From the NCBI RefSeq assembly GCF_024298765.1, contig NZ_CP101210.1: DNA of 64,000 nt. One strand, written 5' to 3'. This document shows, piece by piece, positions 8,672 to 35,313 of this stretch. A program made the translations under genes and the position numbers. Numbering within the stretch: the first letter of the stretch is position 1; every line of letters begins with the position of its first letter. This DNA comes from Escherichia coli (lineage in GTDB: Bacteria > Pseudomonadota > Gammaproteobacteria > Enterobacterales > Enterobacteriaceae). The notes under the pieces are model-generated. The model saw nothing but the letters and a program-made list of their open reading frames with translations. It made no database searches and was not told the origin of the DNA.

Positions 8672-10174
8672 TTACGCCGCAATGGCGTTCATGATCGCCG
8701 GAACGGAAAGCTCTGCCAGCGGGATCTCCGCCACCTGTTTGCGATCGCGCATGATAATCACCCGATCGGCATAGCCCACCAGCTCTTCCAGCTCGGAGGA
8801 GATCACCAGCAGCGCCAGCCCATCGGCGCACAGCGTTTCAATCAGGCGGATGATCTCGGCGTGGGCACCAACATCAATTCCGCGCGTTGGCTCGTCGAGA
8901 ATCAGAAATTGCGGTCGGGTCAGTAGCCAACGTGAAAGCAACACTTTTTGCTGATTGCCGCCGGAGAGAAATTCAATCGGTTGTTCGGTGGAAGGTGTGC
9001 GAATGCCAAGCTGGCGGATAAAGCGTTCGGCAATCTCTTGCTGTTCTTTACGGGAAATAGGTCGTAGCCAGCCGCGCTGGGCCTGGAGAGCGAGGATGAT
9101 ATTTTCCCGCACCGAGGCGGCGGCGATAATGCCATCGGTTTTCCTGTCTTCCGGGCAGAAGCCAATGCCCAGTACCGAAGCCTGATGTGGCGAGCGTAGC
9201 GTTTGCAGTTTGCCTTTGATCAACGCCGTGCCGCTATCAGCAGGTTTGATACCGAAGATCACTTCGGCGGTTTCGGTACGTCCTGATCCCAGCAAGCCTG
9301 CCAGACCGACGATCTCGCCGGGGCGTACTTCGAGATCAAACGGCGCGATCGTTCCTTTTTTGCCGTAATTTTTGAACGCGGCAACAGGTTTGTCGCTCAG
9401 CAATGTTCTCCCGGCACGCTGAAGCGCGTGGGTGTCCAGTTCACGCCCCAGCATCATTTTTACCAGTTCGATCTGCGGTAGCTCGCGGGTTTCCCGACAG
9501 CCCACAAAACTGCCGTTACGTAAGACGGTGATCCGATCGCTGACCTGATAGACCTGATCGAGAAAGTGAGTGACGAAGATCAGACTGACGCCGCGATCGC
9601 GAAGCTGACGCATCAGGCCAAACAGTAACTCTACTTCCTGAGTGTCGAGACTGGCGGTGGGTTCATCGAGGATCAGCACTTTGGCGGAGAGATCGATAGC
9701 CCGGCAAATGGCGACGATTTGCTGCATCGCGACTGAAAAGCGGTTGAGCGGTTCGCGCACGTCGAGGGAGAAACCGTAAGATGCCATCAGTTCGGTGGCG
9801 CGCTTTTCTATCTCTTTACGGCGTAGAAGGCCGAAACGTTTGGGTTCGCGACCTATGAATAGATTATCAGCGACCGACATATTGGGTAGCAGGTTGACTT
9901 CCTGATAGACGGTGCCGATGCCGAGTTGTTGTGCGTGGGCGGTGTTTTTCGGTGAGATAGCCTGGCCTTCCAGCCAGATAGTGCCGCGATCGGCGTGGTA
10001 TACACCGGTTAATGCTTTGATGAGCGTCGATTTTCCCGCCCCGTTTTCACCGAGCAGCGCCATGATTTCACCACGGCGCAGGCTGAAATCAACGTTGTCT
10101 AACGCTTTGACACCGGGGAAAAATTTACTTAATCCTTCGGTGCGGAGGATTTCCTGGTGTTGGTCGGTCGTCAT
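8672..10174 (-). CDS. ytfR: Sugar ABC transporter ATP-binding protein (duplicated ABC domains)
   Basis: 500 aa ORF with two Walker A motifs (GENGAGKST and GLLGSGRTE) and two LSGG signatures. Confidence 0.92.
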   Translation of the reverse strand: MTTDQHQEILRTEGLSKFFPGVKALDNVDFSLRRGEIMALLGENGAGKSTLIKALTGVYHADRGTIWLEGQAISPKNTAHAQQLGIGTVYQEVNLLPNMSVADNLFIGREPKRFGLLRRKEIEKRATELMASYGFSLDVREPLNRFSVAMQQIVAICRAIDLSAKVLILDEPTASLDTQEVELLFGLMRQLRDRGVSLIFVTHFLDQVYQVSDRITVLRNGSFVGCRETRELPQIELVKMMLGRELDTHALQRAGRTLLSDKPVAAFKNYGKKGTIAPFDLEVRPGEIVGLAGLLGSGRTETAEVIFGIKPADSGTALIKGKLQTLRSPHQASVLGIGFCPEDRKTDGIIAAASVRENIILALQAQRGWLRPISRKEQQEIAERFIRQLGIRTPSTEQPIEFLSGGNQQKVLLSRWLLTRPQFLILDEPTRGIDVGAHAEIIRLIETLCADGLALLVISSELEELVGYADRVIIMRDRKQVAEIPLAELSVPAIMNAIAA

Positions 10175-10204
10175 GGTTTCCCCCGGTGTAAAGCGTGCTC
10201 CCAG

Positions 10205-10305
10205 TAGGCATGATAAGACGCGGTAAGCGTCGCATCAGGCTTCAGCGCACCACCGCCGGATGCGGCGCGAGCGCCTTATCCGGCCTACGAATCGGCATCA
10301 GGCAT
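10205..10305. repeat. REP/BIME cluster
   Basis: GATAAGACGCG...CGTCGCATCAGGC and GCCGGATGCGGCGCGAGCGCCTTATCCGGCCTAC units between ytfR and ytfQ. Confidence 0.8.
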
Positions 10306-10313
10306 AGCAACCC

Positions 10314-11270
10314 TCAATACCCCATATTTTTCTTCTTCTCTAACTCTTCTTTTGCGGTATCAGGCAGATAAAGGATGGATTTGGTCAGAGTTAGCTTTTC
10401 AGGCATGGTGCCGTCTTTTTTATATTTCTCCAGCGCATCAAAAGCGGGGCCTGCCATGTTCGGCGTCAGTTCAACGCTGGCGTTCGCTTCGCCATCAATC
10501 ATCGCTTTGTAGATGTCCGGCACGCCGTCGATAGAGCCTGTCAGGATATCTTTGCCCGGTTTCAGGCCCGCTTCTTTAATTGCCTGAATTGCACCAATCA
10601 CCATGTCATCGTTATGGGCGTAAACCATGCAGATGTTTTTGCCGTTGTTTTCCGCTTTGATAAAGCTCTCCATCACTTCTTTGCCTTTGCTGCGGGTGAA
10701 GTCACCTGACTGCGAGCGGATAATTTTGATATTTGGCGCATTCTTAATGGCTTCGGCAAAGCCTTTCTTACGGTCAATGGCGACGCTGGCCCCAACGGTG
10801 CCCTGCAGCTCCACCACGTTGCATGGTTTGCCATTCACTTCTTTTACCAGCCAGTCACCAATCAACTTGCCTTCGAGGATGTTGTCGGCGGTGACAGTGG
10901 TCATATAGAGAGATTTGTCTTTCACATCGATGGAACGGTCAAGCAAGAAGACCGGGATTTCGGCATCTTTCGCCTCTTTTAATACCGGTTCCCAACCCGT
11001 CGCCACCACCGGAGCGATAAAGATCGCATCCACCCCTTGTGCGACGAAGGAACGTACCGCTTTAATCTGGTTTTCCTGCTTTTGCTGACCATCGGCAATT
11101 TTCAGTGTGATACCGCGTTTTTCGGCTTCACTTTTCGCCACATTGGTTTCTGCGGCGCGCCAGCCGGATTCCGATCCGACCTGCGAAAATCCTACGGTTA
11201 ATGGAGCGGCCAACGCCATAGACGACATGGCTGCCGAGACTGCAGAGACTACAAGTAAGCGTTTCCACAT
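10314..11270 (-). CDS. ytfQ: Periplasmic sugar-binding protein (galactofuranose ABC transporter)
   Basis: 318 aa ORF with N-terminal signal peptide; heads the ytfQRT-yjfF cluster. Confidence 0.92.
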   Translation of the reverse strand: MWKRLLVVSAVSAAMSSMALAAPLTVGFSQVGSESGWRAAETNVAKSEAEKRGITLKIADGQQKQENQIKAVRSFVAQGVDAIFIAPVVATGWEPVLKEAKDAEIPVFLLDRSIDVKDKSLYMTTVTADNILEGKLIGDWLVKEVNGKPCNVVELQGTVGASVAIDRKKGFAEAIKNAPNIKIIRSQSGDFTRSKGKEVMESFIKAENNGKNICMVYAHNDDMVIGAIQAIKEAGLKPGKDILTGSIDGVPDIYKAMIDGEANASVELTPNMAGPAFDALEKYKKDGTMPEKLTLTKSILYLPDTAKEELEKKKNMGY

Positions 11271-28727: not shown

Positions 28728-29390
28728 ATGGCTTATCGCGACCAACCTTTAGGTGAACTGGCGCTCTCTATTCCTCGCGCTTCGGCTCTGTTTCGTAAAT
28801 ATGATATGGATTACTGCTGTGGCGGTAAGCAGACGCTGGCGCGCGCGGCGGCACGTAAAGAACTGGATGTTGACGTCATTGAAGCCGAACTGGCAAAGCT
28901 TGCTGAACAACCGATTGAGAAAGACTGGCGTAGCGCCCCGCTGGCAGAAATCATCGACCATATCATCGTGCGCTACCACGATCGCCATCGCGAGCAGCTG
29001 CCGGAGCTGATCCTGCAAGCGACTAAAGTCGAGCGCGTTCACGCCGACAAACCGAGCGTGCCAAAAGGGCTGACAAAATACCTGACTATGCTGCATGAAG
29101 AGCTTTCCAGCCACATGATGAAAGAAGAGCAGATCCTCTTCCCGATGATCAAACAAGGCATGGGCAGCCAGGCAATGGGGCCAATCAGCGTAATGGAAAG
29201 CGAGCACGATGAAGCGGGTGAACTGCTGGAAGTGATCAAACACACCACCAATAACGTCACACCGCCGCCAGAAGCCTGCACCACCTGGAAAGCGATGTAT
29301 AACGGTATCAATGAATTGATTGATGACCTGATGGATCACATTAGTCTGGAAAATAATGTACTGTTCCCGCGCGCGCTGGCGGGTGAGTGA
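28728..29390 (+). CDS. ytfE: Iron-sulfur cluster repair di-iron protein (RIC)
   Basis: 220 aa ORF; hemerythrin-like His/Glu-rich repeats; NsrR box upstream. Confidence 0.93.
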
Positions 29391-29403
29391 TTTGTTCGAT
29401 CAA

Positions 29404-29434
29404 CGCACCTGGTTTACACAATCAGGTGCGTTTT
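29404..29434 (+). terminator. Rho-independent terminator after ytfE
   Basis: CGCACCTG-gtttacacaat-CAGGTGCG hairpin followed by TTTT. Confidence 0.65.
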
Positions 29435-29636
29435 CAAATGCTTTGAGTTATTCACCACTCCGGGACAATCTTTTGTATCTACTGAACTGGGAAAATTCAT
29501 TATTCAGCCAATAATAAGTTCCTTCAACGGTTACTAACTTATTTTTTTCATTAATATAATTACTTATTCATCGCTCCTGTATAAGCCAGAATAAAATCAC
29601 CCATTCCCTAGTTTTTACGTGTACATCCAGCTACCG

Positions 29637-30704
29637 CTACGCTTCCACCCACACCGACCCGCCATCATGGCGGTTCATCAGCGACCACAGCACATGGAAT
29701 TTCTCGCCTCTTTTATACTCCCCCTCCATTTTCCTGTCCGTCCATTCTGGCATCTGCTCTCCCTGCTCCAGTGTCACCGTCGCTTGTCTACCTTCTACAA
29801 AAATCGACCACTCCCCGCTATGAGGACAAGCTTCACCGCTAAAGGCCGCTATCCGCTGCCGGTCTGTAACATACTGCGCTTCGCGCTGTGGCCAGTTGTA
29901 CAACTCCTCCGGCATGCCCTGTGGGAAAAATCCCTCCGGCGGCACATTGATAAATCGGTTTGCCACCCGCCGTATACGTTTCCAATTGCATTTTGCCCAC
30001 GCCCCGCTTTCCCAGTAATATTCTTGTATCCCAGCCTCGTTGACATACTTCGTTCGTACCCGCCCCTGCCAAGCCTCGGGAATATGTTCACTCCGGTACA
30101 ACAGTTGGGCGCTGGCATCTGGGATATCCGGCAGATACAGGCCAGCCACCGTTACCGGGTCATCCTCACGCAGGTATACGCTACTATCCAGCTCATACAA
30201 CGGTAATTGCATCGGCAGGGCCAGCGGGCCGTGCAGACTTTCCTCATAATAATAAGTCAGTTCGCCGTCATACCAGTATCCGCCCGAGGTACGTCTGATT
30301 AAATTATTATAATGTGCACCTCGCCATTTCAGTCTGTCATACTGTTTTTGCGCGGCGAGTGACATCCAGTCCGACGGATAATCAATTAGTCCTTTCATAT
30401 CACTGCTAATATTGCCCCCGGATTGCAGTACCCGCAGGTCCCCCTGCTGTAGCTGAATAAAGTCATACTGTACCGACTTTAAAGTACTGCGGATATTGGG
30501 CAACACTCGCCCGCCCCAGACGACGTCAATCTGCTCGCACAGCGGACGACGGCGCACATCCAGCGGCATGGCCTTGCTCCACTCTGCCACCTGTCGCTCG
30601 CACAGCTCGACAAACTCCTGCCACCCCTCAAAACGACGCCGATAATATTCCGGCGACATTATTCTTTCCAGCAACCAGCACTCCTGTGGATGTAATATAG
30701 CCAC
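29637..30704 (-). CDS. Hypothetical Trp/Tyr-rich cytoplasmic protein (355 aa from GTG with AGGAG Shine-Dalgarno; ORF track gives 373 aa from ATG at 30758)
   Basis: Long ORF in the ytfE-cycA insertion; no signal peptide, no TM segment, no motif I recognise; 16 Trp by my count. Confidence 0.6.
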   Translation of the reverse strand: MAILHPQECWLLERIMSPEYYRRRFEGWQEFVELCERQVAEWSKAMPLDVRRRPLCEQIDVVWGGRVLPNIRSTLKSVQYDFIQLQQGDLRVLQSGGNISSDMKGLIDYPSDWMSLAAQKQYDRLKWRGAHYNNLIRRTSGGYWYDGELTYYYEESLHGPLALPMQLPLYELDSSVYLREDDPVTVAGLYLPDIPDASAQLLYRSEHIPEAWQGRVRTKYVNEAGIQEYYWESGAWAKCNWKRIRRVANRFINVPPEGFFPQGMPEELYNWPQREAQYVTDRQRIAAFSGEACPHSGEWSIFVEGRQATVTLEQGEQMPEWTDRKMEGEYKRGEKFHVLWSLMNRHDGGSVWVEA

Positions 30705-30958
30705 TTTATCTCCTGATTTATTAATTAATTGTCTATTGATACTTTTATTTCGGTACATAAATATTTGTTTGCAACTGAGACACAGCTATATACATATCCA
30801 CTTCATCTATCATCGGTACGCTGACCGTCAAAATAGACGCTGCGTTTATCGGCAGCGAAAGCGCCGAATGCCTGAAAACTGGCGGCATCAACATTAGGTT
30901 CACCGGATGGATTTTTCAGGACTTTGCCTGCCCAAAGGACAGAACGTCCATCGGTGAG

Positions 30959-31237
30959 TCAGGTATGCTGGCAATCCCCCTCATCATCGCAATCGAACTT
31001 ATCGGGATTAAAATCGGACAGTAACCGGGAATCTTGTTTATTGGCTAAATTGGCAATGCGCCAGAGGCGGGACAAATTAACGTCCGGCAGTTCGGAGAGG
31101 ATCTCATCTTTTTTCCCCTTCTGTTCGGCAACGTAAACAGTGCCTTTCTCCTGCTGGCGGTAATAAAAATCCGCGCCCCAGGAAGGTGAAATGGAGAGAG
31201 GTAATGCGGCGATTAATAACCAACTGCGCTTAACCAT
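30959..31237 (-). CDS. Hypothetical small secreted protein (signal peptide, acidic Cys-containing C-terminus)
   Basis: ORF 30959-31261; start taken at ATG giving MVKRSWLLIAALPLSISPSWGA signal peptide; C-terminus DCDDEGDCQHT. Confidence 0.5.
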   Translation of the reverse strand: MVKRSWLLIAALPLSISPSWGADFYYRQQEKGTVYVAEQKGKKDEILSELPDVNLSRLWRIANLANKQDSRLLSDFNPDKFDCDDEGDCQHT

Positions 31238-31321
31238 AATGAACTCTGCAATGAGTGGCAAAGATTCACGGTAAGCCCGCGCCTGGGGGGATGTCGATGA
31301 CGGTAAGTTTTTTTAGGAATG

Positions 31322-31350
31322 TATAAAGACAAAGGCACCCGCAGGTGCCT
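31322..31350 (-). terminator. Putative terminator downstream of cycA
   Basis: AAGGCACC-CGCA-GGTGCCTT hairpin followed on the minus strand by a T-rich tract. Confidence 0.5.
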
Positions 31351-31371
31351 TTCAGAGTGATAAACGCGGCA

Positions 31372-32775
31372 TTACTTCGCCATGCGTTTTTTACCAATAA
31401 ACAACCAGCCCAGCCCCAGCAAGATAAACCATAACGGGGTAACTATCAGCGCCTGGCGAGTGTCATCTTCCAGTGTCAGCAGCACGATCACGAACACAAA
31501 GAACGCCATACATACCCAGCACATCAGCTTACCGAGCGGCATCTTGTAGATTGATTTCTCATGCAGGTGCGGACGCTGTTTGCGATACACCAGGTACGAG
31601 CAAAGGATAATCGTCCAGACGAACATAAACAGGATCGCGGAAACCGTCGTGATCATCGTGAACGCACCAATCACGCTGGGATTCACATACAACATCACCA
31701 CGCCGCCGAGCAGACAGATGCAGGAGAAGGTCAGCCCTTTCGCGGGTACTGCGCGCTTAGAGAGTTTAGCGAACGCTTTCGGTGCCACACCTTCCTGCGC
31801 CAGACCAAACAGCATACGGCTGGTAGAGAAGACGCCACTGTTAGCGGAAGACGCCGCAGACGTCAGCACCACAAAGTTAATCACGCTTGCGGCAGCAGGC
31901 AGACCTACCAATACAAACAGTTCAACAAACGGGCTTTTCTCCGCGACCACCGAACTCCACGGCGTCACAGACATAATCACAATCAGCGCGAAGACGTAGA
32001 ACATAATGATACGGATCGGAATGGAGTTAATCGCGCGTGGCAGTGATTTCTCCGGATCTTTGGTTTCCGCAGCTGTTGTACCTACCAGCTCAATCCCCAC
32101 GAAAGCGAAAACCGCTATCTGGAATCCGGCAAAGAAGCCACTTAAACCTTTCGGGAACCAGCCGCCATCATTCCACAAATGCGTGAATGACGCTTCCACG
32201 CCAGTCGGTGACTGGAAGTGCATCATCACCATGATCAAACCAACGACAATCAGTGACACGATGGCGACAATTTTGATCATCGCAAACCAGAACTCCATCT
32301 CACCGAACATTTTTACCGTGGCGAGGTTTAGAACCAGTAACAGAATGATCACGGATAACGAAGCAACCCAGTCAGAAAGCCCAGGGAACCAGAATTGCGC
32401 ATATGCGGTAATGGCAACGACATCTGCCATCCCGGTTACTACCCAACAGAACCAGTAGGTCCAACCAGTAAAATACCCTGCCCACGGCCCCAGTAGATCG
32501 GAAGCGAAGTCACTAAAAGATTTGTATTCCAGATTCGAAAGCAGCAATTCCCCCATTGCTCGCATCACGAAAAAGAGCATAAAACCGATGATCATATAAA
32601 CGAAGATGATCGACGGTCCGGCAAGACTGATTGTTTTACCGGAACCCATAAACAGCCCCGTACCAATGGCCCCACCAATGGCAATAAGCTGGATATGTCG
32701 GTTTGTGAGATTGCGCCGTAGCGACTGTTCAGCCGGAGCCTGTTCTTCGGCAACGACTTTTACCTGATCTACCAT
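31372..32775 (-). CDS. cycA: D-serine/D-alanine/glycine:H+ symporter (APC family)
   Basis: 467 aa 12-TM ORF recognised as CycA (MVDQVKVVAEEQAPAEQSLRRNLTNRHIQLIAIGG...). Confidence 0.93.
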   Translation of the reverse strand: MVDQVKVVAEEQAPAEQSLRRNLTNRHIQLIAIGGAIGTGLFMGSGKTISLAGPSIIFVYMIIGFMLFFVMRAMGELLLSNLEYKSFSDFASDLLGPWAGYFTGWTYWFCWVVTGMADVVAITAYAQFWFPGLSDWVASLSVIILLLVLNLATVKMFGEMEFWFAMIKIVAIVSLIVVGLIMVMMHFQSPTGVEASFTHLWNDGGWFPKGLSGFFAGFQIAVFAFVGIELVGTTAAETKDPEKSLPRAINSIPIRIIMFYVFALIVIMSVTPWSSVVAEKSPFVELFVLVGLPAAASVINFVVLTSAASSANSGVFSTSRMLFGLAQEGVAPKAFAKLSKRAVPAKGLTFSCICLLGGVVMLYVNPSVIGAFTMITTVSAILFMFVWTIILCSYLVYRKQRPHLHEKSIYKMPLGKLMCWVCMAFFVFVIVLLTLEDDTRQALIVTPLWFILLGLGWLFIGKKRMAK

Positions 32776-33921: not shown

Positions 33922-34560
33922 ATGCCCGGGCGCTTTGAACTAAAACCAACCCTGGAGAAAGTCTGGCACGCGCCGGACAATTTTCGCTTCATGGACCCGC
34001 TGCCGCCGATGCATCGTCGGGGGATCATTATTGCCGCCATTGTATTGGTGGTCGGATTTCTGCTTCCATCTGATGATACGCCCAACGCGCCGGTGGTGAC
34101 GCGTGAAGCACAGTTAGATATTCAGTCGCAATCACAACCACCGACAGAAGAACAGCTGCGGGCGCAATTAGTTACGCCACAAAATGATCCTGATCAGGTG
34201 GCTCCGGTCGCTCCAGAACCAATACAGGAAGGCCAGCCAGAAGAACAGCCGCAAACCACCCAAACGCAACCATTCCAGTCAGATAGCGGAATTGATAATC
34301 AATGGCGCTCCTATCGTGTCGAACCTGGTAAAACGATGGCGCAACTGTTCCGCGACCACGGACTGCCCGCTACCGATGTCTATGCCATGGCGCAGGTAGA
34401 AGGCGCGGATAAGCCACTGAGTAATTTGCAAAACGGGCAGATGGTGAAAATCCGCCAGAACGCCAGCGGCGTGGTGACGGGCTTAACCATTGATACGGGG
34501 AATAATCAACAGGTCCTGTTTACCCGCCAGCCGGATGGCAGTTTTATTCGTGCGCGGTAG
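33922..34560 (+). CDS. ytfB: Cell-division-associated protein YtfB (OapA/LysM-like C-terminus)
   Basis: Start at [10 protein letters not shown] (212 aa); single TM segment and Pro/Gln-rich linker. Confidence 0.88.
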
Positions 34561-35191
34561 ATGAAGGGTCAACCAAAAGCCAGCTAAGGATTGTCTCTTT
34601 GATGACCTTACGTCTGGCTTCCAGTGCCTGGGGTGAAACCATACTGATGTGATAAACCAGGCCAAGCGTATGCTGGTTGATCAAATAATATCCCCCAAGC
34701 GCAGCAATATTAATATTCACCTGCAATGGGTCGATATCTGGCTTAAAAATATTGTGTTTCTTCCCTTCATCCAATAAGGATTCCATTAACTGCAAGTGCG
34801 CATGGTTAATTTCTAAGAGACGCTGTGATTTTGCATAATGCACACCTTTACTTTGATTTTCACTATGCACAATTTTTAAAAACCAGGGATTAGAAATATA
34901 ATAATCCCATGTAAAATCGATTATTTTCTCAATGGCTTTCTGTGGCGGAAGATCTGAGAAATCAAGGGCCTTTTCTTTTTGTCGAATATCGTTCCAGGTA
35001 TATTCCAGTACTTCGATAAATAAATTTTCTTTATTACCAAAGTGGTGATAAACCGTCTGTTTACTGCACCCCGCGGCCTTGACGATATTATCGACTCTGG
35101 CCCCTTCGTAACCATATTCGGCAAATTCATTAACCGCGCATAACAGCAGCTTTTCTTTCAGGCTCTGTACGTTGCTGGTATCAAGATACAT
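34544..35191 (-). CDS. TetR/AcrR-family transcriptional regulator
   Basis: HTH region [44 protein letters not shown]; start taken at [11 protein letters not shown]-rich; divergent from the downstream operon. Confidence 0.8.
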
Positions 35192-35313
35192 AACGCTTCC
35201 CCACGACCTCTTCGTGGTGACTATCATAACCTGATTTGATTTCAGCTTCAGAAAAAAGGGCAAAAACTTGTACTTTCATCAGGTTATCAAATGTCCTGTG
35301 ATCGCCATCGCAT

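Follow-up and report, generated by a model that had tools for sequence, protein, structure and literature searches.

The 64,000-nucleotide stretch of Escherichia coli DNA analysed here (from contig NZ_CP101210.1 of assembly GCF_024298765.1; henceforth the window) carries an accessory segment between ytfE and cycA, and the larger open reading frame (ORF) of this segment, ORF-A (29637-30704, minus strand), is quite probably an orphan immunity gene of a type VI secretion system (T6SS). Such a gene would probably protect the cell against a toxin that it does not itself make. As judged from its sequence, the segment is a composite, in which a decayed island of DKNYY genes is joined to a T6SS-derived immunity cassette. 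The immunity reading is preferred because homologues of ORF-A natively follow an effector gene, occur in tandem copies and share domains with known immunity families.

The T6SS-derived cassette spans 29564-30807 on the minus strand and shares 96-97% nucleotide identity with two E. coli T6SS-1 clusters, that of DETEC-P881 (L015, 10365-11609) and that of GPEC1186 (L016, 9820-11064); at the protein level, ORF-A and the copy in the cluster are 97% identical. A T6SS cluster of Klebsiella pneumoniae also matches the window at 29647-30807, with 71% nucleotide identity. In the E. coli T6SS-1 cluster, the genes run in the order vgrG, a 487-amino-acid (aa) protein, a 355-aa protein, a 126-aa protein, PAAR and tssM; the order in K. 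pneumoniae is tssK, tssL, an OmpA-domain gene, vgrG (DUF2345), a 483-aa protein, the ORF-A homologue, a 123-aa and a 379-aa protein, and tssM. Upstream of ORF-A in the window lies a 63-bp effector gene remnant (30745-30807, minus strand) consisting of the last 20 codons and the stop, DEVDMYIAVSQLQTNIYVPK in translation, which matches the C-termini of the 487-aa E. coli effector (WP_001606041.1) and the 483-aa Klebsiella effector. Homology to the cluster sets in precisely 63 bp ahead of the end of the 487-aa gene and breaks off where the following cluster gene has its start codon. At the right junction, DKNYY sequence ending in ACCGATGATA abuts effector sequence beginning with GATGAAGTGG, and at the protein level the frame passes from GQRTDD across the junction to a single R and a stop. 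Because the pentamer GATGA, a 5-nt microhomology, is the only sequence shared at this junction, illegitimate recombination is indicated, and because the junction is common to strains HS and 2A and the window, it arose once.

On this reading of the boundaries, an island of two DKNYY genes that already lay between ytfE and cycA received, by illegitimate recombination, a 1,245-bp piece comprising the terminal 63 bp of the effector gene, then the immunity gene and the intergenic stretch as far as the start codon of the gene that follows. The T6SS piece replaced the first DKNYY gene beyond codon 143 together with the whole of the second, and the effector itself was left behind. The cytoplasmic 355-aa protein may then bind and neutralise the toxin domain of an effector injected by neighbouring E. 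coli, Klebsiella or relatives, and carriers of ORF-A could survive an attack that they cannot mount themselves. The toxin presumably acts in the cytoplasm, because ORF-A has neither a signal peptide nor a membrane segment.

The second frame of the segment, ORF-B (30959-31237, minus strand; 92 aa if read from ATG and 100 aa if read from the TTG at 31261), is not a partner of ORF-A but a pseudogene stub in decay. The initial annotation took it for a gene encoding a secreted protein of about 92 aa; it consists of a signal peptide and the first 92 codons of a truncated DKNYY gene, cut further by a TGA at codon 93. The 5' fragment of this gene, a pseudogene, occupies 30808-31237 on the minus strand, covers codons 1-143 of 387 and is about 93% identical in nucleotide sequence to the intact 387-codon gene found at the same locus in other strains, so that a complete DKNYY coding sequence is lacking on two counts, namely the truncation after codon 143 and the stop at codon 93. 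The latter is a lineage-specific TGG-to-TGA nonsense codon at 30959-30961, where ORF-B ends; HS and 2A are without it, and in them the frame runs on to codon 144, ending in GQRTDDR, with the stop two codons beyond the junction. In a strain identical to the window, RefSeq flags the stub as a pseudogene. No match to ORF-B was found in Pfam, NCBIfam or PADLOC, and the DKNYY label of the intact homologue is taken from the RefSeq annotation. The AT-rich region of about 200 bp between the two frames, which had been described as a spacer, is real (GC content about 0.43-0.48); it consists, however, of DKNYY codons 94-143 and the final 21 codons, including the stop, of the effector gene.

It has to be considered in this connection whether the two frames, ORF-A and ORF-B, are the genes of a novel operon that was inserted as one unit, as their adjacency on the same strand and their joint presence in all 357 carrier genomes would suggest. 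The junction analysis refutes this and leaves it a negligible likelihood: the two frames have differing sources, the junction between them is precise and illegitimate, ORF-B amounts to the opening quarter of a 387-aa gene, with a length of 92 to 144 codons depending on the strain, and the native T6SS context gives ORF-A no such partner. Thus, of the initial proposal of a two-gene insertion of an unnamed family, the accessory nature of the DNA and its lack of mobility genes stand, whereas the functional pair gives way to two separate origins.

The alternative island allele holds an intact gene for a secreted 387-aa DKNYY domain-containing protein, followed by a gene for a paralogous 494-aa protein, likewise secreted and with a DKNYY domain (the pair lies at 2749-5430 of L002 and 2747-5430 of L003, with the common motifs WLTDGR..LWAGK and YFDG.RTDDN). 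The possibility that ORF-A is a diverged copy of this 494-aa paralogue, which stands in its place in the alternative allele, was rejected, as there is no similarity between them. Essentially no literature on the DKNYY domain was found. When HS (L018) is compared with the window, ORF-A is nearly identical (synonymous divergence, dS, 0.004) but the DKNYY stub shows many residue differences (MAKHSW... versus MVKRSW...; DRNNCQHT versus DEGDCQHT), which suggests recombination within the island after its formation.

With regard to the gene itself, ORF-A could be read from its first ATG as a 373-aa frame (29637-30758). The true start is instead the GTG at 30704, giving a protein of 355 aa (WP_001317586.1), because the homologues and the cluster copies begin with MAILHPQEC; this start is used by RefSeq and by all homologues, and an AGGAG lies upstream of it. 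The initial annotation could name no family for the protein. Direct searches bear this out, in that ORF-A has no Pfam match even at E<=10 and no match in NCBIfam or PADLOC; nevertheless, its gene neighbourhood, profile-profile comparison and shared domains place it among T6SS immunity proteins. Close relatives are few; protein identity is 74% for the K. pneumoniae homologue, 71% for that of Salmonella, 46% for that of Brenneria and about 36% for that of Enterobacter. The AlphaFold2 model built on a 70-sequence alignment has a predicted local distance difference test (pLDDT) score of 94.9, compared with 33 from the single sequence, and depicts three parts: residues 1-160 form a helical bundle, residues 165-255 a beta domain, and residues 285-345 a small beta domain at the C-terminus, which bears the motif CPxxGxW. 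Comparison of this model with solved structures revealed no resemblance.

The partner of ORF-A in its native setting is a putative effector whose gene lies directly 3' of vgrG. As read from the sequence, the effector has two hydrophobic helices near its N-terminus and, in its C-terminal part, a conserved domain of about 200 aa (about residues 285-487 of the 487-aa protein), in which YR, SxDN, WR, WNxNGE, WEG and Q are invariant. The family comprises at least 578 clusters of proteins of about 480-490 aa from Enterobacterales, Pseudomonas and Neisseriales, none of which carries a Pfam domain, and the effector has no match in Pfam, NCBIfam, PADLOC or the Protein Data Bank (PDB). For the conservation of the pairing, one genome per species was scanned with the closer alignment set A5, which yielded 23 loci. 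A full effector gene stands directly upstream on the same strand in 17 of the 23 loci (17 of the 21 that are informative); of the other six, two have an effector C-terminal fragment only, two are without an effector and two are cut by contig ends. VgrG is encoded upstream in nearly all of the scanned loci. The order of effector and then ORF-A homologue is also seen in E. coli, Klebsiella, Brenneria, Pantoea, Pseudomonas fluorescens and Pseudogulbenkiania.

At some loci, the effector is reduced to its C-terminal domain. In Enterobacter, a 207-aa fragment with this domain alone (48% identical) abuts the ORF-A homologue, and a similar fragment lies just upstream of the homologue in Erwinia (L026). 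Because homologues adjoin fragments of this kind, the pairing is with the toxin domain and not with VgrG. Immunity to the DUF2345 domain of VgrG, by analogy with Klebsiella VgrG4/Sel1E, was considered and is less likely, since the gene stays with effector fragments detached from vgrG. According to a 2026 review of the K. pneumoniae T6SS, only VgrG4/Sel1E and Tle1/Tli1 have been experimentally shown. Tandem copies of the homologue occur in Brenneria (two copies, 89% identity) and at L025, L028, L030, L031, L037 and L039; tandem duplicates are typical of immunity genes.

Several loci have further features of their own. In GPEC1186 (L016, 6288-9882), an IS21-family element (ISEc62 istAB) splits the effector gene and the immunity gene is intact, a snapshot of how the effector can be lost and the immunity gene kept. 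In Salmonella enterica (L010 and L011, gene at 10001-11074), the 71%-identical homologue has no effector gene called alongside it. At L010 it lies beside an Ntox44 fragment and downstream of a block of unannotated genes, perhaps a defence island, one of which encodes a DEAD-box helicase, and T6SS core genes follow a few kilobases downstream; the Ntox44 fragment and the helicase block recur at L011, where no T6SS genes were seen. At two of the species-representative loci, L022 (2176-3372) and L026 (3210-4442), a CPxxGxW domain also terminates the gene that precedes the effector fragment, and these loci may therefore be multi-immunity arrays.

The protein can be further compared with several known immunity families, above all Imm71 and Imm72. 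In polymorphic toxin systems, the mostly alpha-helical Imm71 is often fused to the all-beta Imm72 (Zhang et al. 2012, PMC3482391). Such fusions resemble ORF-A in having a mostly helical N-terminal part and a beta part, and one of them, P0150, also has the CPxxGxW C-terminal domain. In an hhalign comparison, the family profile (the broad alignment A3) matched P0150 with a probability of 97.4% (E 9.5e-12, 267 columns, 19% identity), although part of this score comes from the common C-terminal domain of P0150, in which Imm71 lies at 8-87 and Imm72 at 186-284. Unlike the Imm71 (PF15602) and Imm72 (PF15584) proteins, however, ORF-A matches neither Pfam model; among the 70 relatives in alignment A2, two match Imm72 and one matches Imm71, both of the Imm72 matches having been recruited via the C-terminal domain. 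In the AlphaFold Protein Structure Database, relatives are named 'Immunity protein 72'. As regards the partner, Imm71/72 is linked to the Ntox48 toxin (Zhang et al. 2012, PMC3482391), and the effector paired with ORF-A has no Pfam match.

The C-terminal domain itself, a beta module of about 70 aa with the pattern CPxxGxW...G..MP...W, lies at residues 281-354 of ORF-A (about 29640-29860) and is also seen in P0132, P0150, P0036 and P0039, the last of which has the CPxxGxW motif twice. It thus recurs in an Imm71+Imm72 protein (P0150) and in a TsiV protein (P0132), and relatives that carry it match the end of the NCBIfam model for the T6SS immunity protein TaeI (NF041834). TsiV (PF11876, immunity to VRR-NUC T6SS effectors) and TaeI share only this module with ORF-A, their main bodies being unrelated to its residues 1-260. 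The C-terminal region of ORF-A also has a weak match to the PDB entries 9vy2, 9vyd and 9waq, each described as a 'DUF1911 domain-containing protein'. Placed at the C-terminal end of immunity proteins that are otherwise unrelated, the CPxxGxW domain has the look of a promiscuous module among those of T6SSs.

The points that weigh against a functioning immunity gene fall into two sets. The first would favour an accessory factor, such as a chaperone, an adaptor or a co-effector, that loads the 485-aa effector on VgrG or activates it: ORF-A is large for an immunity protein, with 355 aa in three domains, it co-occurs constantly with VgrG and the effector, and some databases name its homologues 'type VI secretion protein ImpA'. 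The second would favour a non-functional, hitch-hiking relic, that is, a random T6SS piece in a decaying island that has not yet degraded: the adjacent DKNYY stub is truncated and has gained a nonsense codon in this lineage, the neighbouring 152 bp (29412-29563) are without known origin, the start codon of the orphans is GTG, shifted from ATG, and a promoter scan of ORF-A was uninformative, so no promoter is assigned.

An accessory role is nonetheless quite improbable. ORF-A always lies downstream of the effector and not between vgrG and the effector, and the Pfam search of ORF-A gave no signal of DUF4123, DUF1795/Eag or DUF2169. The tandem duplicates and the effector-less orphans of E. coli, Salmonella and Chimaeribacter fit immunity, as do the domains held in common with Imm71/72, TsiV and TaeI. 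The names 'ImpA' and 'VasJ' given to homologues proved uninformative, since the precomputed Pfam column reads '-' and there is no ImpA_N match.

A relic, although less remote than an accessory factor, is also unlikely. ORF-A is intact in all of the divergent orphan copies examined (four of four with a full 355-codon frame), whereas the adjoining stub gained a stop. The ratio of nonsynonymous to synonymous divergence (dN/dS) is 0.13-0.14 when orphans are set against the T6SS cluster copies, and a comparison of two divergent orphans with each other (dS 0.05) gives 0.25, all from small counts; within that limit, these values indicate that ORF-A is kept intact under purifying selection. Moreover, the allele is present in 357 genomes, among them the commensals HS and ED1a, enterohaemorrhagic E. 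coli O26 and O111 and avian pathogenic E. coli lineages; the main 355-aa protein cluster has 748 member sequences, and the Shine-Dalgarno sequence is retained. Given the small counts, the GTG start and the missing promoter assignment, we only infer that ORF-A is expressed and brings a benefit to this strain.

The orphan status of the putative immunity gene is borne out by the distribution of the effector among 5,426 complete E. coli genomes. A blastn search with the 483-aa gene found the effector in two of them, both in T6SS-1 clusters. In distant mode, the cognate effector was not found in the strains identical to the window; this search was made at the nucleotide level, at which very divergent effectors could escape, and in the 64 kb of the present genome that were viewed, the effector is represented by the 63 bp at the locus. 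The immunity gene is consequently about 180 times commoner than the effector in complete E. coli genomes. The protein cluster of the E. coli effector has 37 member sequences, compared with 354 in a cluster at 73% identity to it. Since the effector is rare in E. coli and the larger related cluster is the one seen in a K. pneumoniae T6SS cluster, a defence across species is suggested.

Orphan T6SS immunity genes are known elsewhere, for instance in the acquired immunity islands of Bacteroidales, and are thought to influence which cells survive contact-dependent killing where communities are dense, as in the gut. Orphan arrays have also been described in the auxiliary clusters of Vibrio cholerae and the T6SS1 islands of Pantoea agglomerans (PMC9796082). 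Like ORF-A, these genes lack their effector, have homologues directly after an effector elsewhere and presumably protect from relatives or competitors. ORF-A differs from the known arrays in that it is a single gene at an intergenic site of the core genome, outside any T6SS cluster or immunity array, and sits amid what is left of an unrelated island, with no integrase or recombinase. Orphan modules of a toxin tip and an immunity gene are also known from Rhs and contact-dependent inhibition (CDI) systems. In these, as at ORF-A, a 3' fragment of the toxin gene precedes the immunity gene as a footprint of displacement or recombination. The 63 bp of toxin gene at ORF-A are, however, too short for re-fusion into a working toxin, and upstream homology to a full-length effector in the same genome is missing. 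An orphan toxin-tip and immunity module has been described for a Pantoea paar island (PMC9796082).

The general phenomenon of orphan immunity is already well established, and ORF-A adds a member to it and not a principle. Its value is that of an uncomplicated case, with one gene, which is open to testing in E. coli; in addition, the locus draws attention to a large family of VgrG-linked effectors without known activity and supplies a ready-made antidote for its study. In a wider view, held with somewhat better than even confidence, ORF-A and the 485-aa protein would represent a widespread, uncharacterised family of VgrG-linked T6SS effectors and immunity proteins, in which the toxin has a new fold or activity (YR...SxDN...WR...WNxNGE...WEG...Q) and the cytoplasmic immunity protein, with its three domains, is unusually large; as a lone gene in about 6.6% of E. 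coli, it may act as a standing defence in the gut against Klebsiella, Enterobacter and rare E. coli attackers.

The region between ytfE (28728-29390, plus strand) and cycA (31372-32775, minus strand; 467 aa here) is a true polymorphism, with ytfE as a left flank conserved across all three alleles. In the window, 1,981 bp separate the ytfE stop from the cycA stop, compared with 44 bp between the coding sequences in K-12 MG1655; the initial annotation was thus right that this DNA is absent from K-12, although it had put the K-12 spacing at about 100 bp. Both of the same-strand ORFs that it described are present, on the minus strand. Among the 5,426 complete genomes, 4,787 (88%) have the K-12-like empty junction, 357 (6.6%) have the allele of the window with the orphan immunity gene, and about 272 (5%) have the alternative island with two DKNYY genes, which shares only 30808-31371 with the window. 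No description of the ytfE-cycA locus, of its accessions or of the effector family was found in the literature.

The segment has none of the hallmarks of a mobile island or prophage that were sought, namely an integrase or transposase ORF, a transfer RNA (tRNA) target and flanking direct repeats. This agrees with the initial statement that it carries no integrase, transposase or tRNA, the tRNA search being null and such ORFs absent, and the suggested check of the flanks for direct repeats, now carried out, gave only short repeats at chance level. At the left end, the 21 bp after the ytfE stop (29391-29411) are common to both island alleles and absent from K-12, so that, on sequence grounds, the two share a left boundary. 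The following AT-rich 152 bp occur in the 357 genomes with the window allele only, and no match to them was found outside these carriers. A terminator-like hairpin of ytfE has its arms at 29402-29414 and 29420-29432, followed by a T run, and one of cycA lies at 31331-31352 on the minus strand (AAAGGCACC...GGTGCCTTT). The final codons of cycA (31372-31384) are island-specific, ending in KKRMAK before the stop, and the protein has 467 aa in both island alleles versus 470 aa in K-12. Because they share the 21 bp after ytfE and a cycA 3' end unlike that of K-12, the two island alleles are related. The island-specific cycA end places the allele boundary inside the last cycA codons, and gain or loss of the island therefore altered the C-terminus of the transporter.

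Elsewhere in the window, an ORF at 34544-35263 (minus strand) encodes an intact TetR/AcrR-family regulator beside ytfB, annotated as WP_001317585.1 in the identical strain 104; its K-12 counterpart is only the ytfA pseudogene, and strain M7424 has a truncated copy of this ytfB-adjacent regulator beside an IS200/IS605 element.

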